Shown here in pieces: positions 33,787-63,969 of a stretch of DNA of 64,000 nt. The stretch lies in the NCBI GenBank assembly GCA_013214705.1, contig JABSRZ010000003.1, forward strand, positions 401,443 to 465,442. The letters run 5' to 3'. Below the pieces are notes generated by a model. It did no database searches and was not told the origin of the DNA. It saw nothing but the letters and a program-made list of their open reading frames with translations. The translations under genes were made by a program, and so were the position numbers. Position 1 is the stretch's first letter. Each line of letters begins with the position of its first letter. This DNA is from Hyphomicrobiales bacterium. GTDB taxonomy: Bacteria > Pseudomonadota > Alphaproteobacteria > Rhizobiales > OSC116.

Positions 33787-33797
33787 GGCCTTTACCC

Positions 33798-34784: not shown

Positions 34785-34786
34785 AT

Positions 34787-39330: not shown

Positions 39331-39388
39331 TTTTTCTCCAAATATCGAATTGTTTCTTGACGCAGATGTTAAATCAATTATATATAAA

Positions 39389-39404
39389 TTGCAACCGGTT
39401 GCAA
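39389..39404. promoter_or_regulatory. 16-bp perfect palindrome, candidate LacI-family operator (copy 1) in the iolD / oxidoreductase divergent region
   Basis: TTGCAACCGGTTGCAA. The identical sequence recurs at 43797-43812 next to the LacI-family regulator gene. The central CG is typical of LacI-family operators. Confidence 0.7.
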
Positions 39405-39439
39405 AATAACAACAATAAAAAAATTGGGATAACCTTTAA

Positions 39440-40564: not shown

Positions 40565-40613
40565 ATTTGAACCGCTACCAAGATATAAATAATATTGTCT
40601 GAAGGAATTAATT

Positions 40614-41507: not shown

Positions 41508-41518
41508 GGATTAATGAT

Positions 41519-42676: not shown

Positions 42677-42700
42677 GAAAGCTTGAAATTGTGTAACCAA

Positions 42701-43699: not shown

Positions 43700-43796
43700 T
43701 AGATTGTCCTGCCTTTAATCCTCACTCGGGTGTTAATGCAAACCCGCACAATTGTAAACAGTGTCCGGGTCTGATGCTAGCATTGTGAATAAATTT

Positions 43797-43812
43797 TTGC
43801 AACCGGTTGCAA
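43797..43812. promoter_or_regulatory. 16-bp perfect palindrome, candidate LacI-family operator (copy 2) between the regulator and the ABC transporter
   Basis: TTGCAACCGGTTGCAA, identical to the copy at 39389-39404. Confidence 0.7.
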
Positions 43813-43903
43813 AAATATTCTATCTATGCTTTATTGAGTCTCGTAGAAGGGATTTTTATCTAATGCATAGGTAAAAACGAGAATTATAATAGGGAACACA
43901 CAA

Positions 43904-44845: not shown

Positions 44846-44859
44846 CATTTAGGTGATCA

Positions 44860-44892
44860 GGGCAGTTGCTAGTTTTGCAATTGCCCTTTTTT
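44860..44892 (+). terminator. Intra-operon Rho-independent terminator/attenuator after the binding-protein gene
   Basis: A 10-bp stem (GGGCAGTTGC / GCAATTGCCC, one G-U pair) and a 7-nt loop, followed by T6. Confidence 0.65.
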
Positions 44893-44924
44893 AAAAGGGG
44901 TTAAGGGGTTTAAAGGGGTTTAAA
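44893..44924 (+). repeat. Triple Shine-Dalgarno-like repeat before the permease start codon
   Basis: AAAAGGGGTT-AAGGGGTTT-AAAGGGGTTTAAA-ATG. There are three GGGG cores, at 44897-44900, 44905-44908 and 44915-44918. Confidence 0.8.
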
Positions 44925-46049: not shown

Positions 46050-46050
46050 C

Positions 46051-46830
46051 ATGGTCGAACCTATTATCCGCATGAAGAATATCGAGAAGCATTTTGGTTT
46101 GGTGATTGCCTTGGCTGGGGTTTCGGTCGACATTATGGCCGGTGAATGCCATTGTTTGCTGGGTGACAACGGCGCTGGCAAATCGACATTTATTAAAACC
46201 ATGTCTGGCGTGCACAAACCATCCAAGGGCGAAATTATATTCAGTGGCGAAGCCATGAAATTTGAGCGCCCGCGCGATGCCATTGCGGCTGGCGTGGCCA
46301 CGGTTTATCAAGATTTGGCAATGATCCCGTTAATGTCGGTGTCGCGTAATTTCTTTATGGGCAATGAGCCGATTAAAAAATTCGCTGGCATTTCGTTTTT
46401 CGATCATGAATATGCCAACCGAGTGACCATGCAAGAAATGAAGAAAATGGGCATTAATTTGCGCGGGCCAGACCAAGCTGTTGGTACATTGTCTGGTGGC
46501 GAGCGCCAAACTGTGGCCATTGCACGGGCTGTGCATTTTGGCGCAAAAGTGTTAATTCTCGATGAGCCAACATCGGCACTTGGGGTTAGGCAAACTTCAA
46601 ATGTATTGGCGACCATAGATAAAGTGCGCAACCAAGGCATTGCCGTGGTGTTTATCACTCACAACGTGCGCCACGCTATGGCTGTTGGCGACCGCTTCAC
46701 GGTGTTAAACCGTGGTAAAACTTTAGGCACGGCTATACGGGGCGAAATTACCCCCGAAGAATTGCAAGATTTAATGGCTGGCGGGCAGGAACTCGCTTCG
46801 CTTGAAGGCTCCCTCGGAGGTACTGTATAA
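46051..46830 (+). CDS. Sugar ABC transporter ATP-binding protein (single NBD)
   Basis: Walker A GDNGAGKST, signature LSGGERQTV, Walker B VLILDEPTSALG. Confidence 0.9.
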   Translation: MVEPIIRMKNIEKHFGLVIALAGVSVDIMAGECHCLLGDNGAGKSTFIKTMSGVHKPSKGEIIFSGEAMKFERPRDAIAAGVATVYQDLAMIPLMSVSRNFFMGNEPIKKFAGISFFDHEYANRVTMQEMKKMGINLRGPDQAVGTLSGGERQTVAIARAVHFGAKVLILDEPTSALGVRQTSNVLATIDKVRNQGIAVVFITHNVRHAMAVGDRFTVLNRGKTLGTAIRGEITPEELQDLMAGGQELASLEGSLGGTV

Positions 46831-48802: not shown

Positions 48803-51800
48803 ATGAATATACAAGACATAAACACCAAGCAGAAAATTTTCATCTCTGTTGCTATCCCAATGGGCTTTCTTATAATCATCAGCCTGATATCCACCTATAA
48901 CATTTTCCAGTTGACCGAACGCGACAAACTGGTTGATCACACCCATGAAGTGATAGAAGCGATGGCCGACATTAACTTAGCGGCTGTGAATATGGAAACT
49001 GGTATGCGCGGTTACCTACTTGCTGGCAAAGACGAATTCTTGGCCCCCTATGAAGCCGGCGAAATTGCAGCTTATAATGGCATTGAAACCTTGATAAATA
49101 AAGTTAACGATAACCCAGTTCAGGTTCAACGAATGCTGGATATTTCCAATCTGTTAACGACCTGGCAGCGAAAAGTAACAGATCAGCAAATTGCATTGCG
49201 AAGAGAAATTGGCCAAGCAAAATCTATGGAAGACATGGCAAGTTTGATAGGCGAAGCAAAAGGTAAATTAATTTTTGATAAATTTCGCGAACAAATGGAC
49301 AACTTCTTAGATGCTGAGCGACAATTACTAAAACAGCGGGAACTAGATTTATCAGCTTTGGGTGACACCATAAAATCAGATGTTCTCAACACTCGTTTGG
49401 CGGATACAGACCTTCAACTTATCCAAAAAACAATTATAACTATTGAAAAACTAGGGTTTTTCGCCATCTTAATCAATAGATCTGCGAATGACGCTAGCAG
49501 ATTTTTGGATAAAAATTCGCTCTCTACATTCGAAGTAAACGTTGCCAATTTCAAAAAATCACTGAATATCTTGTCTGAATTGACCACGGACAAGGTCGGT
49601 CAACGGACAATAGTTGAACGAATTTCATCACAATTCTCAGAGTGGAATGAAGCAGTAAATCTGCCAGTTTTTGATTCCGAAACCCCGGTATATGCTCAGC
49701 AAACTCGCGAATTTGGTCAATTTGATTCAGTACAAGAGCAACCGACAGATCAAAATAATAAAATATTCGGCTCTTTACTATCTAGCATCAATCTATTTTC
49801 TGAAGTGCAACACAAACGACTAGACAGTGCTATTAATGGAGTGAAAAATTTAGCTGCAAAAGCTGCTGAAAATATAGAGCATTTTACCGAAGGAGAAAAA
49901 TGGTTGCTTCATTCAAATCGGGTAATACAAAATGCATATAAAGTTATTTTGTCTGCTTTGGACATGGAAACCGGCATGCGAGGTTTTCTGCTATCAGGTA
50001 AGGAAGAATTTTTACTGCCTTATACAATCGGTTCAAACAACATTCAGCAGAGGGTATCGATCTTACAAAAATTGGTCAATGACAACTTAAACCAAGTCGG
50101 AATATTAGACCAAGTACAGGAGACCATTTTGCAGTGGCAGAATGAAGTCACTGAAGTCAATATTAGCTTAAGACGGGTTATTAACCAATCCAAATCCATG
50201 GAAGATATGGCCAAAACGGTTGGCCAAGCTAGGGGTAAAGATTTTTTTGATGAACTACGCTCACTTATGCTGGACTTTAAAACAACCGAATTGGACCTAA
50301 TGATCATTCGCAAGGACATTGTAAATGACACAGTTTCGACCAGCTACTATTTGATTTGGATCGCCTCTTTGATAGCGCTTACATTTGGCCTATTTGCCGC
50401 GCTAACGGTGGGCAACAGCATTGCCAAGCCACTAAGAAAAGTTACACTAGCAATGGAAGGTCTTGCGTCCGGAGACTTGAATACAACCTTAAAAAATACC
50501 AAACGTCGTGATGAAATTGGTATATTGACCCGGGCGTTTAACAGCTTAGTTCAGCAGTTGTCTTTCAAAGACAAAGCGGTTTTAAAAGAAAATAAGGTTA
50601 GGTTAGCAGCCGAGGAGAAGGCCGTAATTGCGAATGGTGCAAAGTCAGATTTCTTAGCCGCGATGAGCCACGAAATCCGCACACCACTTACCGGCGTTAT
50701 CGGCATGACCGAATTATTGCTTGATAGCCCACTTTCGGAGGACCAGCACAAATGGTCGTCGACCATCCTATCATCCGGCTACAGCCTGATGGATATTCTC
50801 AACGAAATACTAGACCAATCTAAACTTGAAGCTGGCATGGTAGAAATTGACAATATTGATTTTCACTTAAAGTCATTTATACAAGAAATTGTTAACTTAT
50901 TTTCGGCCAAGACCAATGAAAAGGGTCTAGAGCTTATTTTAGATTTTGATGATGAACTGCCCAAAGGCATATATGCAGATAAAACGCGCCTAGGACAAGT
51001 TTTAACTAATTTATTAAGTAACGCCGTAAAATTCACCGAACATGGTAGCATTAAAATTAAGGTTGAACAGGAGGCAAAAGCTGGTGACAAATTTATGCTG
51101 CGCGTCGAAGTGCAAGATACTGGCGTTGGGCTGAGCGCAGATGCCCAAGCAAAATTATTTCAACCCTTTACCCAAGCCGATAATTCCACCTCCAGAAAGT
51201 ATGGCGGCACCGGCTTAGGCTTGTCTATTTCCAAACAATTGGTAGAATTAATGGGTGGTGCTATATGTGTGGGTAGCGAGCCGGGTGTGGGTTCTTCATT
51301 TTGGTTCACAATTTTATGCCAACCCGCAGAGGCCAAGGTCGCCGTCCGCGAGCGTCGCAGGTCAATAAACCGTTGGACCGCCTCTCGCAGCCTCAACATC
51401 TTAATTGCTGAAGACAATATAGCCAACCAATTGCTAATTCGGACCATTTTGGAAAAATTAACCCATAAAGTAACCATTGCAGAAAATGGCAAGCTGGCGC
51501 TAGATTTACACCAACAGAATATTTACGACCTAATTTTGATGGATGTGCGCATGCCGATTATGGATGGACTGGAAGCCACTCAGAAAATCCGCGCTTTGAC
51601 AGGGGCAAAAGCAACCATTCCCATCATCGCTTTAACTGCCGACATTTCAAAACAAAATGTCGAACAATATACCCAAGCTGGGATGGATGCGGTTTGTGCT
51701 AAACCAGTTGATATACCAGCCTTGCTGACCGAAATTAACCAGCGTTTAGGCGAAGGCATTCACCAACCAAATTCACAGGCACATCGCAGCGATGAAGCGC

Positions 51801-52294
51801 AAAAACGGCTTGTGTCTCAGGACGATTTTGGCCAGCTTCAAAAAAGGGTGAAAGAAATTCATCAACAACATGATGAAAGCTTTGATTATGACGCTTTGGA
51901 TGACCACCACCCCATGGTTTCGGCCATTGGACTAGAAAAATACAAAGAAATTAGAGTGGGTTTTGAAGACGGCTTACCCATGGATTGTGACAATTTACGC
52001 ACTGCTTTTGAGGCGATTTCAGACACGCCAAATGATGAAGAAAATTACCAAACCTTGAGTTTGCTGATCCACACTTTTAAAGGCTCAGGGGCTAGCTTTG
52101 AGTATGAGTTACTCGCGACTCTGGCCAAGGAAGCCGAACGTATTTTGAAAAATGATTTCCCGGTGAAGCCAGACACATTGGCAATGTTGGACATTCACAT
52201 TGCGGCGATGAAACTCGTAGCAGATCACAAGATATATAGCCCCGAAAGCAAAGCGGGTGAGGCTTTATTAAGCGGGCTTAAAATCAGAAGATAA
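48803..52294 (+). CDS. Hybrid sensor histidine kinase/response regulator: TM, CHASE3, a second CHASE3-like module, TM, HAMP, HisKA/HATPase, REC, HPt
   Basis: Two copies of the CHASE3 core ([21 protein letters not shown] and [21 protein letters not shown]) lie between TM1 and TM2. The H-box is [15 protein letters not shown] and the G-boxes are [12 protein letters not shown] reads ILIAEDN...[13 protein letters not shown]. The C-terminal HPt reads [12 protein letters not shown]. Confidence 0.9.
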
Positions 52295-52333: not shown

Positions 52334-53944
52334 TTACAACCTAAAAATGCCAAATTCTGTGGTTTCGATTTTGGCGTTTAAACAGGCCGAAAAAGCCAAG
52401 CCCAACACCCGGCGGGTTTCAGATGGCGCGATGATGCCATCATCCCACAGTCGTGCAGTGGCGTAATATGGATTGCCTTCATCCTCATATTTTTGCAGAA
52501 TTGGCTGTTTAAACGCTTGTTCATCGGCCTTTGACCAATCTTCGCCCTTGGCGTGTTTGGCGTCTCGCTTTAAGGTTGCCATCACCCCCGCTGCCTGCGC
52601 CCCACCCATAACCGAAATACGGCTATTGGGCCATGTGAACATAAAGCGTGGGCTAAACGCGCGGCCACACATGCCATAATTGCCAGCGCCAAAGCTACCG
52701 CCAACCACAAGGGTAATTTTTGGCACTTTGGCATTGGCAACCGCCATAACCATTTTAGCGCCATCCTTGGCGATGCCGCCGGCTTCATATTGTTGACCGA
52801 CCATAAAGCCCGATATATTTTGTAAAAACAGCAATGGTATTTTGCGTTTGGCACATAACTCGACAAAATGTGCGGCCTTAAGTGCCGATTGTGAAAATAA
52901 AATGCCATTATTGCCGATGATGCCAATTGGCATGCCTTCTAAATGCGCGAAGCCACAAACCACGGTTTTGCCGTAAAGCTTTTTGAATTCGCTAAATTCT
53001 GAGCCATCTACAATGCGGGCAATCACTTCTCTTATGTCCACCGGTTCCGATAGGTTTTGTGGGGCGATGCCATTTAACTGTTCACTGTCAAACAATGGCG
53101 GTTCAATAGGCTTATGAACAACGGTCACAGGTTTCTGAAGGTTTAAATTCGCAATAATTTCACGCGCAATTTCAAGTGCGTGATTGTCATTTTCGGCCAA
53201 ATGATCGGCCACGCCCGAAATGCTTGTGTGCATGTCGCCGCCGCCTAAATCCTCCGCCGACACAATCTCGCCAGTTGCAGCTTTCACCAACGGAGGCCCA
53301 GCCAAAAATATGGTGGCTTGGTTACGCACCATTATGGTTTGGTCGCTCATTGCGGGCACATAAGCGCCACCTGCGGTGCAAGACCCCATCACCACCGCAA
53401 TTTGAGCAATGCCTTTGGCGCTCATCTGAGCTTGGTTGTAGAATATGCGGCCAAAATGTTCCCTATCTGGAAAAACCTCGGCTTGGTTGGGCAGGTTAGC
53501 GCCGCCACTATCGACCAAATAAATACATGGCAAGCGGTTTTGTTCGGCAATTTCTTGCGCGCGCAAATGCTTTTTAACCGTCATCGGGTAATATGTGCCG
53601 CCCTTAACGGTGGCGTCATTGCAGATAATCATGCATTCAACGCCCGATACGCGGCCAATGCCAGCAATGAGACCGGCTGCATGAATGTCTGCATCATACA
53701 TGTCATTTGCTGCCAACATGCCAATTTCTAAAAATGCCGAGCCTTTGTCGAGCAATTCTGCAACCCGCATGCGTGGTAATAATTTACCGCGCGCGACATG
53801 TTTGGCCTTCGCGCGCGCGCTACCACCGGCAGCCACTTGGCCACGTTTTTTTGCCAGATGTGCCAATAACTCAGCCATTTTGGCGGCATTTTGTGCATAT
53901 AATTCACTTTTTACATTCATTTCGGTGGTGAGTTTCATATTCAA
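52334..53944 (-). CDS. mccB: Methylcrotonoyl-CoA carboxylase carboxyltransferase (beta) subunit
   Basis: A 536-aa acyl-CoA carboxylase carboxyltransferase. It is adjacent to isovaleryl-CoA dehydrogenase and the biotin-carboxylase subunit. Confidence 0.9.
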
Positions 53945-53953
53945 CCCTTTAAA

Positions 53954-55126
53954 CTATTTGGTCTCATTAAACATTTCGCGGCCAATCAGCATGCGTCTAA
54001 TTTCACTCGTGCCTGCGCCAATTTCATATAATTTTGCGTCCCGCAGCAAACGCCCGGCCGGGTATTCATTGGTATAACCATTGCCGCCTAAAGCCTGAAT
54101 GGTTTCTAGCGCCATCCACGTGGCTTTTTCGGCGGCGTATAAAATAACGCCCGCTGCGTCTTTGCGGCTCACCTCGCCCCGGTCACAAGCCCGCGCAAAG
54201 GTATAAACATAGGCGCGGCAAGCATTCATAGTGCTGTACATATCGGCCAATTTGCCTTGCATCAGCTGAAATGTGCCAATCGGCTGGCCAAATTGTTCAC
54301 GCACATGCACATAAGGCACAACCACATCCATACAGGCCATCATAATGCCGGTTGGCCCGGCACTCAACACCGCACGTTCATAATCGAGGCCAGACATTAA
54401 TATTTTAACGCCGCCATTCAACTCACCAATGATATTCTCGACCGGCACTTCACAATCTTCGAACACCAATTCACAAGTGTCAGAGCCGCGCATGCCTAAT
54501 TTATCGAGTTTCTGAGCGGTAGAAAAACCTTTAAAGTCTTTTTCGATGATGAAAGTGGTGATGCCCTTAGCACCTAATTCAGGTTCGGTTTTGGCATATA
54601 CCACCAAAATATCGGCCTCTGGGCCGTTGGTGATCCACATTTTGCTGCCATTCAGCAAATAATGATCGCCTTTTAATTCAGCGCGTAATTTCATCGACAC
54701 CACGTCAGAACCGGCATTGGCCTCGCTCATCGCCAAAGCGCCAACATGCTCGCCAGAAATTAACTTGGGCAGGTATTTACGTTTTTGCTCATCGCTACCA
54801 TTGCGGTTAATTTGGTTGACACAAAGGTTGGAATGCGCGCCATATGACAGGCCAACTGAGGCCGAGGCGCGGCTAATCTGCTCATTGACCAAACAATGCT
54901 CCAAATAGCCCATGCCCGCGCCGCCAAACTCTTCGGGCACGGTGATGCCAAGCAGGCCCAATTTGCCAAATTCTGGCCATAAATCGCGCGGGAATTGGTT
55001 GCTCTCATCAATTTCTGCCGCGCGCGGGGCAATTTTTTCATTGGCAAAATTCTTAACCATGTCGGTAATCATATCGGCGGTTTCGCCAAGGCCAAAATTC
55101 ATACTGGGCAAATCGTAAAAGCTCAT
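53954..55126 (-). CDS. ivd: Isovaleryl-CoA dehydrogenase
   Basis: An acyl-CoA dehydrogenase with an IVD-typical sequence (..[30 protein letters not shown]..) and liu-cluster context. Confidence 0.9.
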
Positions 55127-55527
55127 TATATGTCCCTCTGATTTTTATTGATTTTTAATTCACTTATTTTATCGGTACAACCTTTTTCGACTCGGTCCAA
55201 TTCGACTAAGGATTCAGTGATGTCAGATAATTTTTGCACCAGAGATTCGCGTTGTTTGGCTATTTTTTCTTGCAGATGCTCTAACTGTTGTAATTCGCCA
55301 GATTTATCATCATACATATCGATAATCACCCGAATTTCGGCCAATGAGAAGCCCATGCGTTTGCCGCGCAAAATGAGCTTTAGCCGGGTGCGGTCGCCAT
55401 CGCTAAAAATGCGATTGCGGCCATTGCGTTGCGGCAATAGCAAGCCCTGATCTTCATAGAATCTCAACGCTCTGGTGGTCAGGCCAAATTCATCGGTTAA
55501 TTGTCTTATCGGTATGTTATATTTCAT
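55126..55527 (-). CDS. liuR: MerR-family transcriptional regulator (LiuR-type)
   Basis: The MerR HTH ([24 protein letters not shown]) plus a coiled coil. It is embedded in the leucine-catabolism operon, and its stop overlaps the ivd start. Confidence 0.85.
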
Positions 55528-55530: not shown

Positions 55531-57465
55531 TCATTCTATTCTCAAAATTAGCTGGCCTTCGCTCACCTGTTCACCGAGGGATACCGCCAAATTTGTAACT
55601 GTGCCTGAAATTTCAGCGACCAAATTATGTTCCATCTTCATGGCTTCGACAATGGCCAAAACATCGCCTGCGACCACTTCATCGCCCAGAGCGACATTTA
55701 ATTTAAACAGGCAGCCGGGCATGGGCGAGGTCACTTGTCCGCCCGCTTCACTTTGCCCGCCATCGTCATAAATACGGGCATCAATCTGATAACCTTTGCC
55801 TTGATCGACAATATAATCGTGCGCATTGCCGTGGATAATGTTGAGCGCTGTTTCACTGGTCACGCCCGGGCGCACACCCGCCGCATCAATGATATATTCG
55901 CCTTGGTGCGGTTGGTTATTAATCATAACATCCATGATGGATTTACGACCATTATTGCCTTGTGCCATGTCAAACGCGTCGGCTCTGTCCCATGCTTGAT
56001 GGGTTTTGGAATTGATGTTTTTGGCATTGATGATTTTTTCAGTCAACATCACTGCTGCCATGGCGCTGACGGCGGTTAAATCTGGTTCATCTCTAGGCTT
56101 GTCAAAAAACCGTTCGATAAAGCCAGTGTCAAAAGTCTCGGCGATAAACTCTGTATCTTCCAAAAGGTCACGTAAAAAACCAATATTGACTTTTACCCCA
56201 GCAATTACAGTGGCACGGAGTGTTTTGGACAATTTGGACAATGCCGCTTTGCGGTTGGGTGCGTGGCAGATAATTTTGGCCATCATCGGGTCATAATGGC
56301 GGCTAATTTCATCGCCGGCCTTAACCCCGGTGTCTAATCGAATGCCGTCAGTTTGCGGCACATCAAAGGCAATAATCTCGCCAATCGAGGGCAGGAAATC
56401 ATGTTCAGCATCTTCGGCATAGACCCGCACTTCAACTGCATGCCCATTAATTGACAATTCAGCTTGGTTTTTGGGTAAGGTTTCACCCGATGCGACCCTA
56501 ATTTGCCATTCAACCAAATCTTGCCCGGTTATGGCTTCGGTGACCGGATGTTCCACCTGCAACCGTGTATTCATTTCCATAAACCAAAACCCATCAGGCT
56601 TTAGACCAGCTGAGCCATCGACAATAAACTCGACAGTGCCTGCGCCTTCATAATCGACCGCTTTGGCAGCACGTATGGCCGCCTCGCCCATGGCTTGGCG
56701 CATATCTGGTGTCATGCCCGGTGCGGGCGCTTCTTCAACCACTTTTTGATGACGCCTTTGTAACGAACAGTCGCGCTCAAACAGGTAGACAAAATTGCCA
56801 AATTGATCGCCAAATATTTGAATTTCAATATGCCGCGGGTTCAGAATGAATTTTTCGATCAGCACTATGTCATTGCCAAATGCAGCCATCGCTTCACGTT
56901 TAGCCGCGCCTAATGCATCTAGAAACTGGCTTTTTTCATCGACCCGCCGCATACCTTTGCCACCGCCGCCGGCCACGGCTTTAATCATTACCGGGTAGCC
57001 AATTTTAATCGCTTGTTCGGCTAAATATTCAGGCTGTTGATTGTCGCCAATATAGCCTGGCACAATGGGCACATCGGCTTGTTGCATTAGCAATTTTGCC
57101 GCATCTTTTAAGCCCATAGATTTAATGGCATGAGCTGACGGGCCAATAAATTTAACCCCCGCATCGGCACATTTTTGCGAGAATTCGGCATTCTCTGATA
57201 AAAAACCATAACCCGGGTGGATGGCCTGCGCGCCAACCTTTAGCGCCAAGGCAATAATTTCATCGGCTTTTAAGTAACTTTCATTCACCGGCGCTGCGCC
57301 AATTAAATGCGCTTCATCGGCCATTTTTACGTGTAACGCATTGGCATCGACGGCCGAATATATGGCAATGGTGCGCACGCCCATTTGCTTGGCGGTGCGG
57401 ATGACCCGACAGGCAATTTCGCCTCTATTGGCAATTAAAATTGAGTTAATCACGAGCCGCTCCAC
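55531..57465 (-). CDS. mccA: Methylcrotonoyl-CoA carboxylase biotin-carboxylase/BCCP (alpha) subunit
   Basis: A biotin carboxylase N-terminus (ILIANRGEIACRVIRTAK), an ATP-grasp domain, and a C-terminal biotinylation motif EAMKME. Confidence 0.9.
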   Translation of the reverse strand: MERLVINSILIANRGEIACRVIRTAKQMGVRTIAIYSAVDANALHVKMADEAHLIGAAPVNESYLKADEIIALALKVGAQAIHPGYGFLSENAEFSQKCADAGVKFIGPSAHAIKSMGLKDAAKLLMQQADVPIVPGYIGDNQQPEYLAEQAIKIGYPVMIKAVAGGGGKGMRRVDEKSQFLDALGAAKREAMAAFGNDIVLIEKFILNPRHIEIQIFGDQFGNFVYLFERDCSLQRRHQKVVEEAPAPGMTPDMRQAMGEAAIRAAKAVDYEGAGTVEFIVDGSAGLKPDGFWFMEMNTRLQVEHPVTEAITGQDLVEWQIRVASGETLPKNQAELSINGHAVEVRVYAEDAEHDFLPSIGEIIAFDVPQTDGIRLDTGVKAGDEISRHYDPMMAKIICHAPNRKAALSKLSKTLRATVIAGVKVNIGFLRDLLEDTEFIAETFDTGFIERFFDKPRDEPDLTAVSAMAAVMLTEKIINAKNINSKTHQAWDRADAFDMAQGNNGRKSIMDVMINNQPHQGEYIIDAAGVRPGVTSETALNIIHGNAHDYIVDQGKGYQIDARIYDDGGQSEAGGQVTSPMPGCLFKLNVALGDEVVAGDVLAIVEAMKMEHNLVAEISGTVTNLAVSLGEQVSEGQLILRIE

Positions 57466-57632
57466 TTAAGGTATGTATTCATTTGATTTACCTTATCGTA
57501 AGTCGAGGGGTGCCAAATTGCAAGTAATCAAGCGTTGGATTGACGTTGATTTCCTATTGTTGGCGATTATTTGTTTGACGCTGAATTTACATTGGTTAAG
57601 CTAGAGCCATAAAAACAACGAAAGAAATCGCC

Positions 57633-58091
57633 ATGCAAGGTTTATATTTTGAACAATTTATAGTCGGCGAAATCATTGAACATGGCTTAAGCAAAACCAT
57701 TACCGAGGCAGATAACATGCTGTTCTGTAATATGACTTTGAACGCCCAGCCATTGCATATTGACAAGCATTTTTGCGAAACGCACAGCGAATTTAAACAA
57801 CCTATAGTCAACTCGTTATTGACATTAGGCTTAATGATTGGCATCAGCGTCAATGACACAACCATAGGTACCACCATTGCCAATTTAGGCATGACAGATG
57901 TGAATTTTCCGGCGCCGGTGTTTCAGGGCGATAGTATTTATGTCAAAACCGAAATTCTCGACAAAAGGCAGAGCAAATCGCGCCCCAATGCTGGCATTGT
58001 CACCATGTTACACCGCGCCTATAACCAAGATAAACTGCTGGTTGCCACCTGCACCCGCAAAGCTTTTATAAAAAAACAGCCAACCGATTAG
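57633..58091 (+). CDS. MaoC-like (hot-dog fold) acyl/enoyl-CoA dehydratase-hydratase
   Basis: A 152-aa MaoC dehydratase-type sequence (..TITEADNMLFCNMTLNAQPLHID..). It is divergent from mccA. Confidence 0.8.
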   Translation: MQGLYFEQFIVGEIIEHGLSKTITEADNMLFCNMTLNAQPLHIDKHFCETHSEFKQPIVNSLLTLGLMIGISVNDTTIGTTIANLGMTDVNFPAPVFQGDSIYVKTEILDKRQSKSRPNAGIVTMLHRAYNQDKLLVATCTRKAFIKKQPTD

Positions 58092-58100
58092 ACTAAGGTT

Positions 58101-58949
58101 ATGCCGATGAGATCATTATTATTTGTGCCTGCTGACGATGCAAAAAAGCAACAAAAAGCCTTGGCCAGTGCCGCCGATGCGATTATTTTGGACATGGAAG
58201 ACAGCGTTGCGGCTGCCAATAAAATCAAAGCCCGGCAAACAATTGCTGAGTTTTATCGCCAATTGTCGAGTGATAAAATAATCATCATTCGCATCAATGC
58301 GTTAGATACCGATCTTTGGCAGGCTGATATGCAGGCCATATTAACGCATGCGCCAGATTATATCCTCATTCCCAAAGCCCGCTCTGGTGCAGATGTCACG
58401 ACGATAAACGAGCTTATTAAATCCAACCCTAAAGCTGCCATCAAGACTCAAATCATCGCTTTGGTGACAGAATTGCCAGAATCGATATTCAACATTGCCA
58501 GCTTTAAAAATAGTGGAGACGCATTGGCTGGCTTGACATGGGGGGCAGAAGACCTGTCGGCAGAAATAGGCGCACAAACCAATAAAGACAAAAATGGAGT
58601 TTATTTTCCGGTTTATCAAATGGCCAGATCCTTTTGTTTGCTTGGTGCGGCGCATGCCGAGGTGCCGGCGATAGATTCTGTATTCACCAATTTTAAAGAC
58701 CTTGAGGGCTTAAAAGCCGAGGCGGAACGCGCTAGAATAGAGGGGTTTCGAAGTAAAATGCTGATTCACCCGTGCCAAATTGCGACCGTCAATGAGGTGT
58801 TTAAGCCGAGCGAGGCCGAAATCAACCATGCCAAACGAGTGATAGAGGCCATCGAAAATTCGGCCAGCGGTGGCGTGGCGCAACTTAATGGTGAGATGAT
58901 AGACCAACCGCATTATAAACGCGCGCTTAACCTCATTAAACAATTATAA
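58101..58949 (+). CDS. HpcH/HpaI aldolase - citrate lyase beta (CitE)-like acyl-CoA lyase
   Basis: CitE-like blocks (RSLLFVPADD, ILDMEDSV, G..WGAEDLSAE.G). It starts 10 nt downstream of the MaoC gene. Confidence 0.8.
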   Translation: MPMRSLLFVPADDAKKQQKALASAADAIILDMEDSVAAANKIKARQTIAEFYRQLSSDKIIIIRINALDTDLWQADMQAILTHAPDYILIPKARSGADVTTINELIKSNPKAAIKTQIIALVTELPESIFNIASFKNSGDALAGLTWGAEDLSAEIGAQTNKDKNGVYFPVYQMARSFCLLGAAHAEVPAIDSVFTNFKDLEGLKAEAERARIEGFRSKMLIHPCQIATVNEVFKPSEAEINHAKRVIEAIENSASGGVAQLNGEMIDQPHYKRALNLIKQL

Positions 58950-58964
58950 TATCGGCCTATAGTT

Positions 58965-60407
58965 TTAAATGTGGATGGCCTCTCCCAACGCCATCATCGC
59001 GCTTTCCATAAACGCTTCGCCCATGGTTGGGTGGGCGTGGATGGTGTCGGCAATGTCTTCTAGCCGTGCAGACATTTCTAACGCCAGCGCAAATTCACCG
59101 GCCAATTCGCTGATATGCGCCCCCACCGCTTGAATGCCTAATATTAGATGATTGTCTGCCCGGGCAATCACCCGGACAAAGCCGCCATCGCCGCCCATTT
59201 GCTGCGACAACGCCCGGCCGTTGGCCACAAATGGAAAATTGCCAATTTTTACCTCGATATTTTTATCTTTTGCTTGTTGTAAAGTCATGCCAACGCTGAC
59301 AATTTCGGGGTCGGTAAAACAAATTGCGGCGATGGATGTTGGCGCAAATTCACGGGTTTTGCCGGTGATAATCTCGGAAACAATTTCGCCTTGGGTGGTG
59401 GCTTTATGCTCTAGCATTGGTTCACCAACTATGTCGCCAATTGCCCAGACATTGCGCATACTAGTGCGGCATTTATTATCAATTTTTATGAATTTTTTAT
59501 CGTCCGTTAAGTCAACCCCCATATGCTCCAAACCCCAGCCAAACAAGTTGGCTTGCCGGCCAATTGTGACCAGTATTTTATCGCAGTCAAGGCTGATTAT
59601 GTCATCATTTGCTGATTTTATTTCAAGCTGCTGGTTTTGGTTCAGACCAATGGCCGAGCTGTTCAGGAATATATCGACATTATATTTTTTTAGGCTGGCC
59701 ACAACTGGCCTAACCAGTTGTTTATCAAAGCTTGGCAAAATTGCATCGCCCATTTCGACAAAGCTAACTTTACTGCCCAATTTGGCATAGGCTAAACCTA
59801 ATTCTACGCCGATATATCCCGCACCAATAATGGCTAGTGTTTTCGGGACTGTTTGCAGGCAAAGCGCCTCGGTCGAATCAATCACTTTTCCGCCAAATGG
59901 CAGCGAAGGCAATGGCATAATTTTTGAGCCAGTGGCCAAAATAACATGCTCGGCGGTGAGTTCTAATGTTTCAATTTTATTGGTTGCATCTTTGGTTTCA
60001 ACCATGCAGGCCTTGGCATTGTGAAATTTTGCCCAGCCTTTGATGACAGTGACGCCAGCACGCTTTAGCAGGCCTTCGACGCCTTGGCTTAACTGGTTGA
60101 CGACAGAATCCTTCCAGCCTTGGGTTTTTGCATAATCTAACTTTACTGGCTGGCTAAAGTCTATGCCTAGTTCGGACACCGAGTGCGGCGATGTGGTTTG
60201 CAATTTGGCATATTGACCAGCCGCGTGGATGATGGCTTTGGAGGGAATGCAACCGCGAATGAGGCAAGTGCCGCCCATGCGATCGGCCTCTACTAAAATT
60301 ACTTTTTTGCCCAATTTACTGGCTCTAATGGCCGCCACATAACCACCTGGGCCACCGCCGACCACCAAGACATCACATGATATATGTTCAATATTTTCGC
60401 TAACCAT
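58965..60407 (-). CDS. lpd: Dihydrolipoyl dehydrogenase (E3)
   Basis: The FAD fold VVGGGPGGY, the redox disulfide GGTCLIRGCIPSK, and the C-terminal HAHPTMGE. Confidence 0.93.
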   Translation of the reverse strand: MVSENIEHISCDVLVVGGGPGGYVAAIRASKLGKKVILVEADRMGGTCLIRGCIPSKAIIHAAGQYAKLQTTSPHSVSELGIDFSQPVKLDYAKTQGWKDSVVNQLSQGVEGLLKRAGVTVIKGWAKFHNAKACMVETKDATNKIETLELTAEHVILATGSKIMPLPSLPFGGKVIDSTEALCLQTVPKTLAIIGAGYIGVELGLAYAKLGSKVSFVEMGDAILPSFDKQLVRPVVASLKKYNVDIFLNSSAIGLNQNQQLEIKSANDDIISLDCDKILVTIGRQANLFGWGLEHMGVDLTDDKKFIKIDNKCRTSMRNVWAIGDIVGEPMLEHKATTQGEIVSEIITGKTREFAPTSIAAICFTDPEIVSVGMTLQQAKDKNIEVKIGNFPFVANGRALSQQMGGDGGFVRVIARADNHLILGIQAVGAHISELAGEFALALEMSARLEDIADTIHAHPTMGEAFMESAMMALGEAIHI

Positions 60408-61693
60408 TACACATCTCCCATAAATAAGGTGGCAGGCACTTCGAGCAAGCTTTTGATATATTGCACAAATTGCGCACCATCATAACCATCGACAATGCGG
60501 TGATCGAAAGAGGCCGAAATATTCATCATTTTGCGAATGACAATTTCGCCATTAAATACCATTGGCCGCTCAACCAATTTATTGTTGCCGATGATGCAGA
60601 CCTCTGGCGCATTGATGATGGGAGTGGTGACAATGCCGCCCATTTTACCCAAAGAGGTGATGGTGATGGTTGAACCAGTCAGTTCATCGCGCGTGGCGGT
60701 TAGGGTTCGGGCTTTATCTGCCAATTCAACAATTTTATCGGCATAACCCCATATATCCATGGCTTCGGCATGTTTTATCACCGGCACCATTAACCCATTG
60801 GGGGTGTTGGCCGCCATGCCAAAATGCACTGGCTCAAATTGTTTAATCAGTTGGTTTTTTGCATCATAATGCGCGTTAACTTGCGGATATTTGGCCACAG
60901 CTTTAACGATGGCCTGCATCAAAAATGGCAATAATGTTAATTTGGGTTGGGCTTCAGAGCGCTCGGCATTTAGTTGGCCGCGCAATTTTTCTAAATCGGT
61001 CAAATCGACTTCTTCGACATAGGTATAATGCGGTATGCGCAGTTTGGAAATTTCCATCGCTTCGGCAATTTTACGCCTGACACCGCGCATTGGAATTTCG
61101 GCAATTGCGGTTTTTATGACCTTGCCGGGGACGTGTTCGCCAGATGATGGCAATTGATGAACAACCTGCGAAATATAGGTGCCCCCAGAAGCAATAAAGC
61201 CATCTAAATCGGCATGGGTTAGGCGGCCAGCAGGGCCAGAACCGACAATTAGACCCAAGTCGATATCCTCATCGGCAGCCCGGCGGCGCAATGAAGGCGA
61301 GGCCAATATATCGCCGTTAATGGCTTCAGCAGGCATCGGTTTTGCGGAAGATGCTTTTGAAATATTGACGTCTTTTGGCATGCTAGTGGGCGCAGGCGGC
61401 ACAACTTCGTGGCTGCTGGCAGAAACCGAGGATGACGCAATGTTTGGCTGGTCTGAAACTTCAAAACTAATGAGGGCTTCACCAACATTTATAATGTCGC
61501 CCACAGCGCCTGCTATTTTTATAATTTTACCATCAACTGGTGATGGCAATTCGACTGTGGCTTTGTCAGTCATCATGGCGATTAAAACATCGTCTTCCTC
61601 GACCACTTGCCCGACTTTAACGTGTAGCTCGACAATTTCAGAGGTCACGACCCCTTCGCCCAAATCTGGCAATAAAAAATCAAAAACAGCCAT
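60407..61693 (-). CDS. bkdB: Branched-chain alpha-keto acid dehydrogenase E2 (dihydrolipoamide acyltransferase)
   Basis: The lipoyl attachment motif MTDKATVELPSP, a peripheral subunit-binding domain, and the catalytic SFDHRIVDG. Confidence 0.9.
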   Translation of the reverse strand: MAVFDFLLPDLGEGVVTSEIVELHVKVGQVVEEDDVLIAMMTDKATVELPSPVDGKIIKIAGAVGDIINVGEALISFEVSDQPNIASSSVSASSHEVVPPAPTSMPKDVNISKASSAKPMPAEAINGDILASPSLRRRAADEDIDLGLIVGSGPAGRLTHADLDGFIASGGTYISQVVHQLPSSGEHVPGKVIKTAIAEIPMRGVRRKIAEAMEISKLRIPHYTYVEEVDLTDLEKLRGQLNAERSEAQPKLTLLPFLMQAIVKAVAKYPQVNAHYDAKNQLIKQFEPVHFGMAANTPNGLMVPVIKHAEAMDIWGYADKIVELADKARTLTATRDELTGSTITITSLGKMGGIVTTPIINAPEVCIIGNNKLVERPMVFNGEIVIRKMMNISASFDHRIVDGYDGAQFVQYIKSLLEVPATLFMGDV

Positions 61694-61696
61694 ATT

Positions 61697-62716
61697 CTAT
61701 GCCTCCATAATGCGGTTTATGGCATTGGTTATACGCTTCGGCCCGGGGAAATATTCCCACTCAAAAGCATGTGGGTACGGTATGTCCCAGCCCGTCACCC
61801 GCTCTATCGGCGCGCGCAATTTCCAAAAACAATTCTCTTGAATGATCGACAAAATTTCGGCACCAAAGCCGCCAGTTTTTGTCGCCTCATGGGCAACCAG
61901 GCAGCGGCCGGTTTTATTGACGCTGTTAATTATAGTGTCATTATCTATCGGAGCGAGGCTGCGCAAATCAATAATTTCGGCATCAACACCGGCCATTTTA
62001 ACCGCTGTTTCAACCACATGCACCATGGTGCCATAAGTGATGATGGTTAAATCCTCTCCTGCGCGGGTGATGGCGGCTTTGCCGAATGGTATGGTGTAGT
62101 GGCCTTCTGGCACTTCGCCTTTTTCATGGCTGTCCCAGCCTACAGAGGGTTTATCTGGCTCGCCATAAAATGGCCCATTATACAATCGCTTTGGTTCAAA
62201 AAATATCACCGGGTCATTGCTTTGGATGGCGCTAATGAGCAAGCCTTTTGCGTCATAAGGGTTTGAGGGCATGATCACATGTATGCCGGTTACATGGGTG
62301 AAAATACCCTCGGGGCTTTGGCTGTGAGTTTGGCCACCACGAATGCCGCCGCCACAAGGTGTGCGAATGGTTAAGTTGGTTGAATATTCGCCGCCGCTCC
62401 GGTAGCGAAGCTTCGCCGCCTCGGAGGCAATTTGGTCGAAAGCCGGGTAAATATAATCGGCAAATTGAATTTCGGCGATCGGCCTCAAGCCATTGAGAGA
62501 CATGCCAATAGCAGCGGCGACAATGCCATTTTCTGAAATGGGGGTATCAAACACTCTATTGCTGCCAAACTCGGCTTGTAGGCCTTCGGTGGCTCTAAAT
62601 ACGCCGCCAAAATACCCAATATCTTGGCCTAAAATGACCACTTTATCATCGCGTGCCAACATGGTTTTTTGGGCTGACAATATGGCTTCTAACATGTTCA
62701 TCTGTGCCATAATCAA
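61697..62716 (-). CDS. bkdA2: Branched-chain alpha-keto acid dehydrogenase E1 beta subunit
   Basis: A transketolase-like pyrimidine-binding plus C-terminal domain of typical E1-beta sequence. It overlaps the E1-alpha stop. Confidence 0.9.
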   Translation of the reverse strand: MIMAQMNMLEAILSAQKTMLARDDKVVILGQDIGYFGGVFRATEGLQAEFGSNRVFDTPISENGIVAAAIGMSLNGLRPIAEIQFADYIYPAFDQIASEAAKLRYRSGGEYSTNLTIRTPCGGGIRGGQTHSQSPEGIFTHVTGIHVIMPSNPYDAKGLLISAIQSNDPVIFFEPKRLYNGPFYGEPDKPSVGWDSHEKGEVPEGHYTIPFGKAAITRAGEDLTIITYGTMVHVVETAVKMAGVDAEIIDLRSLAPIDNDTIINSVNKTGRCLVAHEATKTGGFGAEILSIIQENCFWKLRAPIERVTGWDIPYPHAFEWEYFPGPKRITNAINRIMEA

Positions 62717-63969
62717 AGCCCCATTTCTTGGCGTTGTCTCAGTAAATTTAGCGGCATGTCTTCGTACACATCTTCAAACATGGTGGTCACATCTGGCCGA
62801 TCTCCAGATTTTAGAGTGCCGTAACTTTCTGCCTGTTTATAATTTTGTTTCATTTCGGTTTTAATGTCTTCAATCAATGTTTCATGTTGAGTTTCTGACC
62901 ATTGATTCAGGTTGATTAAATGAGTTTTTAACCGGTCAATGGGGTCGCCCAGCGGCCAAAAGTCTGGTTCATTTTTCGGCCGATAGGCTGATGGATCATC
63001 CGATGATGAATGCGGCGCCACGCGATAGGTGAAATATTCGATGACAGTTGCCCCCAGCCCGGCACGCGCCCGCGCGGCCGCCCATTTTGTGGCTGCATAG
63101 ACCGCCAAAAAGTCGTTACCATCTACCCGTAAACTTGGCAAGCCAAAGCCAATTCCGCGAGCGGCAAAAGTGGTTTTTTCGCCACCAGCAACCACTTGAT
63201 TGCTAGAGATTGCCCATTGATTATTGGTAATGTTTAAAATAACCGGCGGGCTGAAAGCGGTAGCAAATGTAAGCGCAGAATGAAAATCTAATTCGGCGGT
63301 GCTGCCTTCGCCAACAAAGGCGGATGCCACGCGGCCACCACCTTGTTGAGCTTCGGCCATTGCCCAGCCAACGGCTTGGCTAAATTGAGTCGCCAAATTG
63401 CCTGAAATGGAGAAAAAGTTACCCTTTTTCCAGCTATACATAATGGGCAATTGCCGGCCTTTGCAATTGTCACGCGCGTTAGATAGGCATTGGCACATCA
63501 TATCCACAAGGCTGTAACCTCGCGCGATCAAAATGCCTTGATTGCGGTAGGATGGAAACACCATGTCGGCAAAATTTATGGCGGCCGCATGCGCCACGCT
63601 GATAGCTTCCTCGCCGGTGGATTTCATATAAAATGATATTTTGCCGACCCGGTGCATCATCTGCATCCGCTCATCAAACATGCGGGTGACCAACATATCT
63701 TTGAGGCCTTTTACTAGCACATGCGGCTCTATGGTGCTGTTCCAATTGCCAGCGGCATTGCCATCATCATCCAAAACCCGAATAAGGCCATAAGCCAACC
63801 CCCGCATTTCATGCGGATTGGTGTCAATTGCCGGGCATTCGGCTTGCTCTACATTGGGTATGTTTAGGTTAGAAAAATCATTAAATTCATCTGGCCGTGC
63901 AGTCGGTTGCGGCACATGTAGTTTATTTAACGAGTTGACAATATTAGATTGATTTTGCTTTTTAGCCAT
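62713..63969 (-). CDS. bkdA1: Branched-chain alpha-keto acid dehydrogenase E1 alpha subunit
   Basis: A ThDP-binding region (..FVGEGSTAE.DFH.AL.FA..PVI..ITNNQWAIS) and its position as first gene of the E1a-E1b-E2-E3 operon. Confidence 0.9.
   Translation of the reverse strand: MAKKQNQSNIVNSLNKLHVPQPTARPDEFNDFSNLNIPNVEQAECPAIDTNPHEMRGLAYGLIRVLDDDGNAAGNWNSTIEPHVLVKGLKDMLVTRMFDERMQMMHRVGKISFYMKSTGEEAISVAHAAAINFADMVFPSYRNQGILIARGYSLVDMMCQCLSNARDNCKGRQLPIMYSWKKGNFFSISGNLATQFSQAVGWAMAEAQQGGGRVASAFVGEGSTAELDFHSALTFATAFSPPVILNITNNQWAISSNQVVAGGEKTTFAARGIGFGLPSLRVDGNDFLAVYAATKWAAARARAGLGATVIEYFTYRVAPHSSSDDPSAYRPKNEPDFWPLGDPIDRLKTHLINLNQWSETQHETLIEDIKTEMKQNYKQAESYGTLKSGDRPDVTTMFEDVYEDMPLNLLRQRQEMGL

Follow-up and report, generated by a model that had tools for sequence, protein, structure and literature searches.

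Leucine breakdown through (R)-HMG-CoA was described in 2019 as unprecedented (PMC6689899), and the route is known only from mycobacteria so far. The CitE-like lyase Rv2498c of Mycobacterium tuberculosis (Mtb) cleaves (R)-HMG-CoA with a kcat/Km of 3.9e5, and its deletion mutant does not grow on leucine and builds up HMG and methylglutaconate; the enzyme has little preference between (R)-HMG-CoA and (S)-citramalyl-CoA, and the CitE-like family as such is promiscuous towards beta-hydroxyacyl-CoAs (PMC6689899). For the specific cleavage of (R)-HMG-CoA, Wang et al. used PA0883, a CitE-like lyase of the itaconate pathway in Pseudomonas aeruginosa (PMC6689899); the activity is therefore not limited to Rv2498c. 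The Rv2498c gene belongs to the operon accD1-accA1-fadE19-Rv2499c-citE, which adjoins bkdABC and is co-regulated with it (PMC3920632, PMC4347857). The hydratase of that operon, Rv2499c, was shown to hydrate itaconyl-CoA (PMC11789021), while its action on 3-methylglutaconyl-CoA was only proposed (PMC3920632).

The window, i.e., the whole stretch of DNA analysed here (64 kb), stems from a marine proteobacterial MAG. We propose that its segment from 52.3 to 64.0 kb (12 kb) constitutes a complete leucine-to-acetoacetate module, composed of the following features:

52334–53944, minus strand: mccB/liuB, beta (carboxyltransferase) subunit of MCC, at the end of the minus-strand operon (PF01039, 522 bits).
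53954–55126, minus strand: ivd/liuA, isovaleryl-CoA dehydrogenase (PDB and database matches).
55126–55527, minus strand: MerR-family regulator, LiuR-type by family and position (PF13411, PF09278, PF00376).
55531–57465, minus strand: mccA/liuD, MCC biotin carboxylase/BCCP (alpha) subunit (Biotin_carb_N, CPSase_L_D2, Biotin_carb_C, Biotin_lipoyl).
57466–57632, no strand assigned: shared divergent control region of 167 nt (sequence; conserved blocks in a five-way alignment with relatives).
57633–58091, plus strand: MaoC-type single hot-dog (R)-hydratase, 152 aa (PF01575, 75 bits; PF19315, 60 bits).
58107–58949 (longest ORF from 58101), plus strand: CitE-like beta-hydroxyacyl-CoA lyase, 280 aa (PF03328, 123 bits).
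58965–63969, minus strand: BCKDH operon, immediately downstream of MaoC-CitE and convergent with it (domain and NCBIfam matches), comprising the next four genes.
58965–60407, minus strand: BCKDH E3, lipoamide dehydrogenase (TIGR01350, 471 bits; cut-off 409).
60407–61693, minus strand: BCKDH E2 (2-oxoacid_dh, lipoyl and E3-binding domains).
61697–62716, minus strand: BCKDH E1beta (Transket_pyr/Transketolase_C).
62713–63969, minus strand: BCKDH E1alpha (E1_dh and OxoDH_E1alpha_N, the 2-oxoisovalerate dehydrogenase N-terminal domain).

The gene identities across the locus are secure. Compared with PDB entries, the mccB product scores 787 bits against human MCCB, 786 against the P. aeruginosa MCC beta subunit and 749 against Mtb AccD1, and lower against the beta subunits of geranyl-CoA carboxylase (GCC; 500 bits) and PCC (~254 bits). 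The ivd product matches the isovaleryl-CoA dehydrogenase 4o5m with 653 bits and human IVD with 553 bits, all other ACADs scoring at most 301, and its 100% database match carries the name isovaleryl-CoA dehydrogenase. For mccA, MCC alpha subunits are among the top PDB matches, over the full length (human, 576 bits; P. aeruginosa, 569 bits); its true start is probably the GTG at 57453, ahead of which a GGAG is found. These Pfam and PDB scores, with the ORFs placed as before, bear out the minus-strand order mccA-liuR-ivd-mccB given in an earlier note on this DNA. The adjoining BCKDH operon was absent from that note.

The lyase most likely starts at the ATG at 58107 and not at 58101, because an AAGG occurs 8 nt upstream of the former and a 100%-identical entry (P0001) of 280 aa begins with MRSLLF. 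The gap between the MaoC and lyase genes would then be 15 nt: the divergent transcription of the pair from the 167-nt region is as the earlier note had it, but the 10-nt spacing reported there would need correction.

A domain scan of the window ORFs of at least 150 aa, across all 64 kb, detected no crotonase (ECH_1, PF00378), HMGL_like or CoA-transferase domain. The reported lack of LiuC and LiuE from the operon can thus be extended to the scanned window ORFs of this size; the check for the two covered the operon, the window and ±10 kb in relatives, and canonical liuC/hmgL genes could be present elsewhere in the genome. Pfam annotation of four close-relative contexts (L001–L003 and L085–L087) likewise revealed no CoA-transferase within ±10 kb, so that the itaconate CoA-transferase, whose proximity had been named as counter-evidence, is lacking from both sets. 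The window further encodes no citD, no citF and no acetoacetate-activating enzyme, and no atu-type genes were seen at the locus.

Neither protein of the pair matches the LiuC (crotonase) or LiuE (HMGL-like) families. The lyase belongs to the HpcH/HpaI-CitE-like superfamily (PF03328, 123 bits with a cut-off of 25, residues 4–224; PF15617, 43 bits) and has its catalytic Arg as well as the Glu and Asp that bind Mg2+. Its PDB matches are RipC, Rv2498c, Mcl and CLYBL at E-values of 1e-37 to 1e-24, Yersinia RipC (3qll) being the top one. At 33.7% identity to Rv2498c and 35.6% to RipC, it is not a clear orthologue of the proven mycobacterial enzyme, RipC being equally close. The equivalents of Rv2498c R64 (iiRINA), E112 (lvTE) and D138 (WGAEDL) are retained and invariant in alignment A1. 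Amongst the substrate contacts of Rv2498c, G135, A136, E137 and V181 are kept, and a T takes the place of the methyl-contacting M133; none of the known residues distinguishes the use of HMG-CoA from that of citramalyl-CoA. The MaoC protein is a member of PF01575 (75 bits, cut-off 27) and also matches PF19315 (MC_hydratase, the mesaconyl-CoA hydratase family; 60 bits). The family motifs T-x-N-x-x-P-L-H-x-D, NLG and S-x-S-R are at least 97% conserved in 81 homologues, and the window MaoC keeps the residues invariant across the family. In NCBIfam, the pair matches RipB and RipC of itaconate degradation best, with scores well under the equivalog cut-offs: 121.8 bits for MaoC against RipB/Ich (NF038241; cut-off 340) and 188.1 bits for the lyase against RipC/Ccl (NF038242; cut-off 375). 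Against the citrate lyase beta (CitE) equivalog TIGR01588, the lyase scores 160.5 bits, under the cut-off of 443. Readings of the locus as a citrate lyase, a malyl-CoA lyase/Mch or a geranyl-CoA (atu) system were dropped on scores and context.

We consider that the pair most likely performs the last two steps of leucine breakdown via (R)-HMG-CoA, in replacement of LiuC and LiuE. In the proposed pathway, BCKDH would deliver isovaleryl-CoA, which IVD would oxidise to 3-methylcrotonyl-CoA, and MccAB would carboxylate the latter to 3-methylglutaconyl-CoA. The MaoC hot-dog hydratase would then add water to yield (R)-HMG-CoA, opposite in stereochemistry to the canonical intermediate, and the Mg2+-dependent CitE-like lyase would split this intermediate into acetoacetate and acetyl-CoA; by such a hydration and cleavage, the pair would thus stand in for the crotonase LiuC and the DRE-TIM lyase LiuE. 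We infer that the two proteins are a 3-methylglutaconyl-CoA hydratase and an (R)-HMG-CoA lyase, respectively; by analogy with Mtb, the HMG-CoA intermediate must then be the (R)-isomer and not the canonical (S)-isomer. The earlier note had suggested the conversion of methylglutaconyl-CoA to HMG-CoA and on to acetoacetate and acetyl-CoA, and this suggestion is supported by analogy, the same chemistry having been proposed in Mtb and, for the lyase Rv2498c, demonstrated. The stereochemistry of the intermediate and the prior publication of the idea for mycobacteria had both escaped that note. Speaking against our proposal are the low identity of the lyase to Rv2498c, its M133-to-T change, the possible presence of canonical liuC/hmgL elsewhere, the fact that Rv2499c was shown to act on itaconyl-CoA, and the lack of an acetoacetate-activating enzyme from the window.

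The locus is, most likely, a new proteobacterial case of the route already shown in mycobacteria. It shares with Rv2499c-Rv2498c the two protein families in the order hydratase then lyase, the companions (MCC alpha and beta, an IVD-type ACAD and an adjacent BCKDH operon), the catalytic Arg/Glu/Asp, the GAED loop and the V181 equivalent, and the same proposed (R)-HMG-CoA chemistry. Unlike in Mtb, the lyase (33.7% identical) has a T for M133, the pair is divergently transcribed instead of collinear, the regulator is MerR/LiuR-type and encoded inside the operon instead of the TetR-type BkaR, scoAB genes are lacking from the window, and the host is a marine proteobacterial MAG. With the liuRABCDE clusters, the locus has in common the proposed pathway positions, the net products acetoacetate and acetyl-CoA, the operon partners and a LiuR-type regulator. 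The folds are unrelated to those of LiuC and LiuE (hot-dog versus crotonase, HpcH/CitE-type versus HMGL-like), and, by our proposal, the HMG-CoA stereochemistry would be opposite; the relation is one of non-orthologous displacement, not of membership.

The resemblance to the itaconate enzymes calls for two other explanations. Yersinia RipB/RipC and Pseudomonas Ich/Ccl (PA0878/PA0883) have the same folds and carry out a hydration to a 3-hydroxy-3-methyl acyl-CoA followed by a retro-aldol-type cleavage, whereas the window pair scores under their equivalog cut-offs, is without a RipA/Ict CoA-transferase and has leucine-catabolic partners. The pair could be bifunctional as in M. tuberculosis, acting on leucine as well as on C5 dicarboxylates (itaconate/mesaconate via (S)-citramalyl-CoA) with a CoA-transferase encoded elsewhere. 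The nearly equal use of (R)-HMG-CoA and (S)-citramalyl-CoA by Rv2498c, the itaconyl-CoA hydratase activity of Rv2499c, the best matches to RipB and RipC and the match of MaoC to the mesaconyl-CoA hydratase family would all agree with this; nevertheless, the scores are far under the RipB and RipC cut-offs, a CoA-transferase is missing from the window ORFs of at least 150 aa and from the ±10 kb around the relatives' modules, and control appears to be tied to the regulator of the liu operon. We deem such a dual function unlikely, and it would extend the leucine explanation, not replace it.

Comparative genomics adds independent support for the leucine role of the pair. The divergent module, with mccB-ivd-MerR-mccA on one side and MaoC-CitE on the other, recurs in each of the four close relatives that were fetched (lyase 74–83% identical), and MaoC-CitE is physically linked to mccA/mccB/ivd in all five loci of the window's own clade. 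The MerR gene occupies the same position between mccA and ivd in L001, L085, L086 and L087. The outer flanks vary amongst the relatives, with fre-ubiD-rho-trxA in one and TRAP/ABC transporters in another. The association of the pair with mccA/mccB/ivd holds beyond this clade: a second alphaproteobacterial clade has a collinear ivd-mccB-mccA-MaoC-CitE operon, which we found in Ponticaulis, Altericroceibacterium, Tsuneonella, ‘Rhizobium sp. L43’ and several MAGs. These Sphingomonadales-type and Ponticaulis operons, whose lyases branch as a clade of their own, encode the same five functions with the same protein families and include no crotonase or HMGL gene. They differ from the window in having every gene on the same strand and in lacking a MerR gene between mccA and ivd, and their lyase and MaoC are 43–44% and 44–53% identical to those of the window, respectively. 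In one locus (L076), a generic crotonase gene is located 5 kb from the operon.

More distant homologues were collected by a scan of genome contigs, the matches listed being 40–48% identical and from outside the window's close clade. A MaoC gene is found directly upstream of the lyase gene in ~72 of the 80 distant loci listed. Most of the distant homologous pairs listed (Hyphomicrobiales) are without liu linkage; in this large Hyphomicrobiales clade, MaoC-CitE occurs by itself, with housekeeping genes around it. The window MaoC is 54–69% identical to the MaoC proteins of that clade, compared with 44–53% to those of the liu-linked sphingomonad clade, which speaks against the leucine reading. A Thalassospira ivd locus is uninformative as a contrast because no mcc genes are nearby.

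These unlinked pairs would fit a dedicated Ich/Ccl-type itaconate/mesaconate pair that merely lies beside the liu operon, with canonical LiuC and LiuE encoded elsewhere, as would the nearest curated families (RipB/Ich and RipC/Ccl) and the top PDB match 3qll. Yet the proven itaconate clusters include a CoA-transferase, of which none was found here, and neither protein reaches its equivalog cut-off; the link with mccA/mccB/ivd is shared by actinobacteria and two proteobacterial clades that are distinct from each other, and a chance adjacency would not outlast the turnover of the flanks amongst the relatives. This arrangement by accident is, in our opinion, quite improbable, more so than the bifunctional one.

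In relatives, the module is enlarged by genes for a CoA ligase and a 4HBT thioesterase and by a CMD-family gene. These additions, together with the promiscuity of the CitE-like family towards beta-hydroxyacyl-CoAs, could point to an accessory role in branched-chain or isoprenoid-type acyl-CoA metabolism, e.g., the hydration and cleavage of another 3-methyl-branched enoyl-CoA. The carboxylase is nonetheless of the MCC and not the GCC type (787 versus 500 bits), the dehydrogenase is an IVD, BCKDH is adjacent and atu-type genes are lacking, and we regard such a role as very improbable.

A literature search on the MaoC/CitE-like pair, or on the collinear ivd-mccB-mccA-MaoC-CitE operon in Proteobacteria, returned no description beyond the mycobacteria. 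A broader reading, for and against which we see an equal case, is that the (R)-HMG-CoA route is widespread and independently assembled in Proteobacteria, the locus described here being a full replacement of LiuC/LiuE under LiuR control and the stand-alone pairs of the Hyphomicrobiales being the missing liuC/liuE of those genomes. If so, the R-stereospecific route would be no mycobacterial oddity but recurrent in marine and soil Proteobacteria, and enzymes from non-pathogens would become available for studying the discrimination between HMG-CoA and citramalyl-CoA in the CitE-like family. Since the concept has already been published, the gain is one of scope and annotation, not of principle. In the source record, both genes have generic names only, the lyase being a ‘CoA ester lyase’ (MCJ8322893.1) and the hydratase a ‘MaoC family dehydratase’ (MCJ8322892.1), so that an automated reconstruction of pathways would find the leucine catabolism of this organism incomplete; the same annotation gap is to be expected in many genomes with ivd-mccB-mccA-MaoC-CitE.

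The (R)-HMG-CoA route proposed for this locus would probably be under the control of the operon-encoded regulator. LiuR belongs to the MerR family and represses BCAA utilisation (PMC3223726), and a MerR-family regulator (MerR_1, MerR-DNA-bind and MerR domains) is encoded inside the liu cluster of the window. Three elements can be discerned in the control region:

57485–57504, no strand assigned: dyad GATTTAC-N6-GTAAgTC with a conserved core, a candidate LiuR operator.
57538–57545, plus strand: block GATTGACG (alignment), with a -35-like TTGACG at 57540–57545 and the A/T-rich hexamer GATTAT 19 nt on.
57575–57602, plus strand: second promoter-like element upstream of MaoC, with TTGACG (57575–57580), 16 nt and TAAGCT (57597–57602).

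The dyad core TTACCTTATCGTAA is invariant in all five aligned sequences, and L085 has both 7-nt arms of the dyad without mismatch. The dyad overlaps the predicted mccA promoter, namely a -10-like TACGAT on the minus strand (57500–57495), 17 nt from a -35-like TTGCAA (57523–57518), and is the only match in the window with at most one mismatch. Within 1.65 Mb of loci, the perfect form TTTAC-N6-GTAAA has three occurrences, two of them upstream of mccA (L085 and L087) and one at an unrelated site in L064. The dyad was found neither upstream of other window genes nor, in the 1.65 Mb, at liu or MaoC-CitE loci outside the clade; it therefore offers no regulatory link to the stand-alone pairs of the Hyphomicrobiales. 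An inverted-repeat finder had missed it because the arms are only 7 nt long with one mismatch. The MerR/LiuR-type repressor probably acts through this dyad on both divergent transcripts.

A generic scan of the control region for sigma-70 promoters and terminators gave nothing above chance and no consensus promoter. GATTGACG is likewise invariant in the five aligned sequences and, with the GATTAT hexamer, might form a MerR-type promoter for MaoC-CitE. The second promoter-like element could conceivably act as a promoter too; its TTGAC is conserved in four of the five sequences.

The liu operon, the divergently transcribed MaoC hydratase and CitE-like lyase genes (the pair) and their neighbours are arranged as follows.

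48803-52294, convergent with the end of the liu operon: CHASE3 hybrid sensor histidine kinase, 1163 aa (Pfam)
52334-53944, minus strand: mccB, MCC beta matches
53954-55126, minus strand: ivd, isovaleryl-CoA dehydrogenase match
55126-55527, minus strand: MerR-family regulator (profile searches)
55531-57465, minus strand: mccA, MCC alpha match over the full length
57466-57632: divergent control region, 167 nt, between mccA and the MaoC gene
57633-58091, plus strand: MaoC hot-dog protein, 152 aa (PF01575 and mesaconyl-CoA hydratase family PF19315)
58101 or 58107 to 58949, plus strand: CitE/HpcH-type lyase (PF03328)
58965-63969, convergent, directly beyond the lyase gene: branched-chain 2-oxoacid dehydrogenase (BCKDH) operon, four genes

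The ORF map and profile searches confirmed the anatomy that the earlier note had read from the sequence: mccA, the MerR gene, ivd and mccB form one closely packed minus-strand operon, with the pair divergent from it across the 167-nt region. The ivd product matched an isovaleryl-CoA dehydrogenase of solved structure at 653 bits (other ACAD classes, at most 301), and the mccB product scored 787 bits against human MCC beta, 786 against that of P. aeruginosa and 749 against M. tuberculosis AccD1, as compared to 500 for geranyl-CoA carboxylase beta and about 254 for propionyl-CoA carboxylases. On sequence grounds, the identities of mccA, ivd and mccB can be taken as secure. The probable mccA start is the GTG at 57453, with GGAG ahead of it; the longest-ORF start (57465) is probably not real. 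The BCKDH operon, an adjacency absent from the earlier note, encodes an E1 alpha with a 2-oxoisovalerate dehydrogenase N-terminal domain (profile search). Only 15 nt separate the ends of the lyase gene and the convergent gene for lipoamide dehydrogenase (58949-58965); no terminator-like hairpin was detected there by our scan. The kinase carries two CHASE3 stretches, HAMP, HisKA/HATPase, receiver and Hpt domains.

A precedent exists in M. tuberculosis, where Rv2498c, long annotated as CitE, is no citryl-CoA lyase (Wang et al. 2019, PMC6689899) but cleaves (R)-HMG-CoA (kcat/Km 3.9e5) and (S)-citramalyl-CoA stereospecifically. Leucine does not support growth of its deletion mutant, in which HMG, methylglutaconate and methylcrotonate build up; the breakdown of this amino acid therefore proceeds via (R)-HMG-CoA, not (S)-HMG-CoA (PMC6689899). 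Rv2498c is not alone in this activity, since the itaconate-pathway lyase PA0883 of P. aeruginosa was employed by Wang et al. as a known (R)-HMG-CoA-specific lyase (PMC6689899). In mycobacteria the genes run accD1-accA1-fadE19-Rv2499c (hydratase)-citE, then bkdABC, and a bkaR mutant shows joint derepression of them all (PMC3920632, PMC4347857). The window's 52.3-64.0 kb resembles this locus in having the same gene set and the same BCKDH adjacency.

The earlier proposal that the pair stands in for the canonical LiuC (crotonase-type hydratase) and LiuE (DRE-TIM HMG-CoA lyase, HmgL) is a sound one. BCKDH, IVD and MccAB would yield 3-methylglutaconyl-CoA, which the MaoC protein is predicted to hydrate to (R)-HMG-CoA; cleavage of the latter by the CitE-like lyase would give acetoacetate and acetyl-CoA. 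We consider it probable that the pair completes leucine breakdown in this way. The stereochemistry is consistent: 3-methylglutaconyl-CoA has mesaconyl-C4-CoA as its lower homologue, and hydration of the latter gives (S)-citramalyl-CoA, identical in spatial configuration to (R)-HMG-CoA (PMC6689899). Rv2499c has been shown to hydrate itaconyl-CoA (PMC11789021); that it acts on 3-methylglutaconyl-CoA in M. tuberculosis is a proposal (PMC3920632). A bifunctional role in leucine plus itaconate breakdown, as in that species, would extend the main reading without contradicting it; we hold it to be rather unlikely.

For the MaoC protein and the lyase, the best NCBIfam matches are itaconate enzymes, RipB/Ich and RipC/Ccl, with scores far below the equivalog cut-offs (121.8 versus 340 bits and 188 versus 375 bits, respectively). 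Such matches could suit a dedicated C5-dicarboxylate pair, with canonical liuC and liuE encoded elsewhere. A Pfam scan of the window's remaining ORFs of at least 150 aa found no crotonase, HMGL-like or CoA-transferase domain, in agreement with the stated absence of LiuC and LiuE from the operon, and no gene of these three kinds occurs within 10 kb in four groups of close relatives. We regard the dedicated pair as improbable.

The lyase was also tried, and rejected, as a citrate-lyase CitE (160 bits versus a cut-off of 443). Its start is most likely the ATG at 58107, with AAGG 8 nt upstream and a 100%-identical database entry of 280 aa; the identical MCJ8322893.1/NRB13210.1 comes from a marine MAG with the label Rhizobiales/Hyphomicrobiales and is annotated just as "CoA ester lyase". 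At 33.7% identity to Rv2498c and 35.6% to Yersinia RipC, it is not a clear orthologue of either. In the alignment, it conserves the Rv2498c active-site residues Arg64, the Mg2+ ligands Glu112 and Asp138, and Val181, likewise the carboxylate-binding backbone Gly135-Ala136-Glu137; Met133 is a Thr here and across the subfamily. The MaoC protein retains all residues at least 97% conserved among 81 homologues compared.

In the four groups of close relatives, with lyases 83, 81, 77 and 74% identical to the window's, the divergent module (CoA ligase)-mccB-ivd-(4HBT)-MerR-mccA <-> MaoC-CitE is always kept, and the outer flanks are unrelated (TRAP and ABC transporters in one pair, fre-ubiD-rho-trxA in the other). 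An AMP-binding CoA ligase (557-566 aa) follows mccB in all four; L085 and L086 have two more genes: one, lying between ivd and the MerR gene, encodes a 4HBT thioesterase, and the other, of the CMD family, directly follows the lyase. All three are absent from the window.

Extra module genes in the relatives: L001, 2345-4024; L085, 2096-3769, 6580-7026 and 10845-11420; L086 and L087, likewise
Stand-alone pair in more distant genomes: L004-L034 and most of L037-L084, e.g., L004, 9511-10888

Scanning species-representative genomes with the lyase returned at least 80 loci (lyases 40-48% identical), about 72 of 80 with a MaoC gene directly upstream, and at least eight or nine with a collinear ivd-mccB-mccA-MaoC-CitE operon, the pair last, all among the matches listed. 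Among the carriers are Ponticaulis profundi, Altericroceibacterium indicum, Tsuneonella litorea, Allosphingosinicella, "Rhizobium sp. L43" and several MAGs; where the arrangement is cleanest, neighbouring genes touch or overlap without insertions. By neighbour-joining, these loci group in a clade of their own, apart from the window's and a large Hyphomicrobiales clade. The pair is thus physically tied to MCC and IVD in no fewer than three lineages (the actinobacteria, the clade of the window and the sphingomonad-type clade) and across two different operon architectures; in the large Hyphomicrobiales clade it stands alone. Another branched acyl-CoA role seems highly improbable. One of the main weaknesses of the leucine reading is that the window's MaoC is closer to stand-alone Hyphomicrobiales proteins (54-69% identity) than to liu-linked sphingomonad ones (44-53%), among the matches listed. 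The stand-alone two-gene unit (Bosea, Microvirga, Methylocystis, Methylocella, Stappia, Coralliovum) neighbours housekeeping genes such as those for threonyl-tRNA synthetase, NAD kinase and flavin reductase, without liu genes nearby.

Taxonomic labels conflict: the source MAG is Rhizobiales/Hyphomicrobiales, the nearest named IVDs (about 80%) are from Sneathiella and Thalassospira, and, when the window is compared with the L001/L087 flanks, a relative whose IVD is 90% identical carries the label Oceanospirillaceae together with the fre-ubiD-rho-trxA flank, which is typical of Gammaproteobacteria. Either a label error or a module transfer between classes would be involved.

A five-way alignment of the control region has two invariant blocks. 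The first, TTACCTTATCGTAA, is the core of a dyad GATTTAC-N6-GTAAATC, perfect in L085 and with one mismatch in the window (57485-57504), which overlaps a -10-like hexamer of the minus strand, TACGAT, with a -35-like TTGCAA at a distance of 17 nt. LiuR, of the MerR family, is described as repressing the use of branched-chain amino acids (PMC3223726). The position of the dyad, a candidate operator, would suit a repressor of mccA; the window has no second copy, and in other clades the liu and MaoC-CitE loci have none. The second block, GATTGACG (57538-57545), faces MaoC, and 19 nt beyond it comes an A/T-rich hexamer. Such spacing is typical of MerR-controlled promoters, and the two elements may form a putative MerR-type promoter toward MaoC.

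The principle of an R-specific leucine route is already known from M. tuberculosis, and the present case would be no great surprise to specialists. As judged from its genes, the window holds a new proteobacterial case, with a new divergent, LiuR-linked layout. We found no description of the route outside mycobacteria in the searchable literature, so that annotators may wish to note how it recurs in alphaproteobacterial genomes, those of Sphingomonadales type among them.

The remaining ORFs of at least 150 aa encode Liv-type transporter parts, regulators (Pfam) and three further groups.

3642-18369: polysaccharide/EPS cluster (Pfam)
23137-25342: adjacent FGE-sulfatase/DinB_2 protein (EgtB-like) and Methyltransf_33 histidine methyltransferase (EgtD-like, 345 bits)
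32695-46830: complete-looking myo-inositol catabolic cluster (Pfam)

The EPS cluster, with a GC content (0.38-0.43) below the rest of the window, holds two Wzy_C proteins, GT2 and GT1 transferases, WecG, PGM/PMM, Bac_transf and a Wzz/GNVR chain-length protein; its ORFs 3642-4877, 12340-13068 and 16200-16967 have no Pfam match. The egtB/egtD-like genes look like a two-gene ergothioneine biosynthesis pair. The myo-inositol cluster includes IolG-like oxidoreductases, a class II aldolase, IolB, a PfkB kinase/IolC, the TPP enzyme IolD, an IolE-like TIM barrel, a LacI regulator and a sugar ABC transporter, with a PhyH-family dioxygenase at one end.
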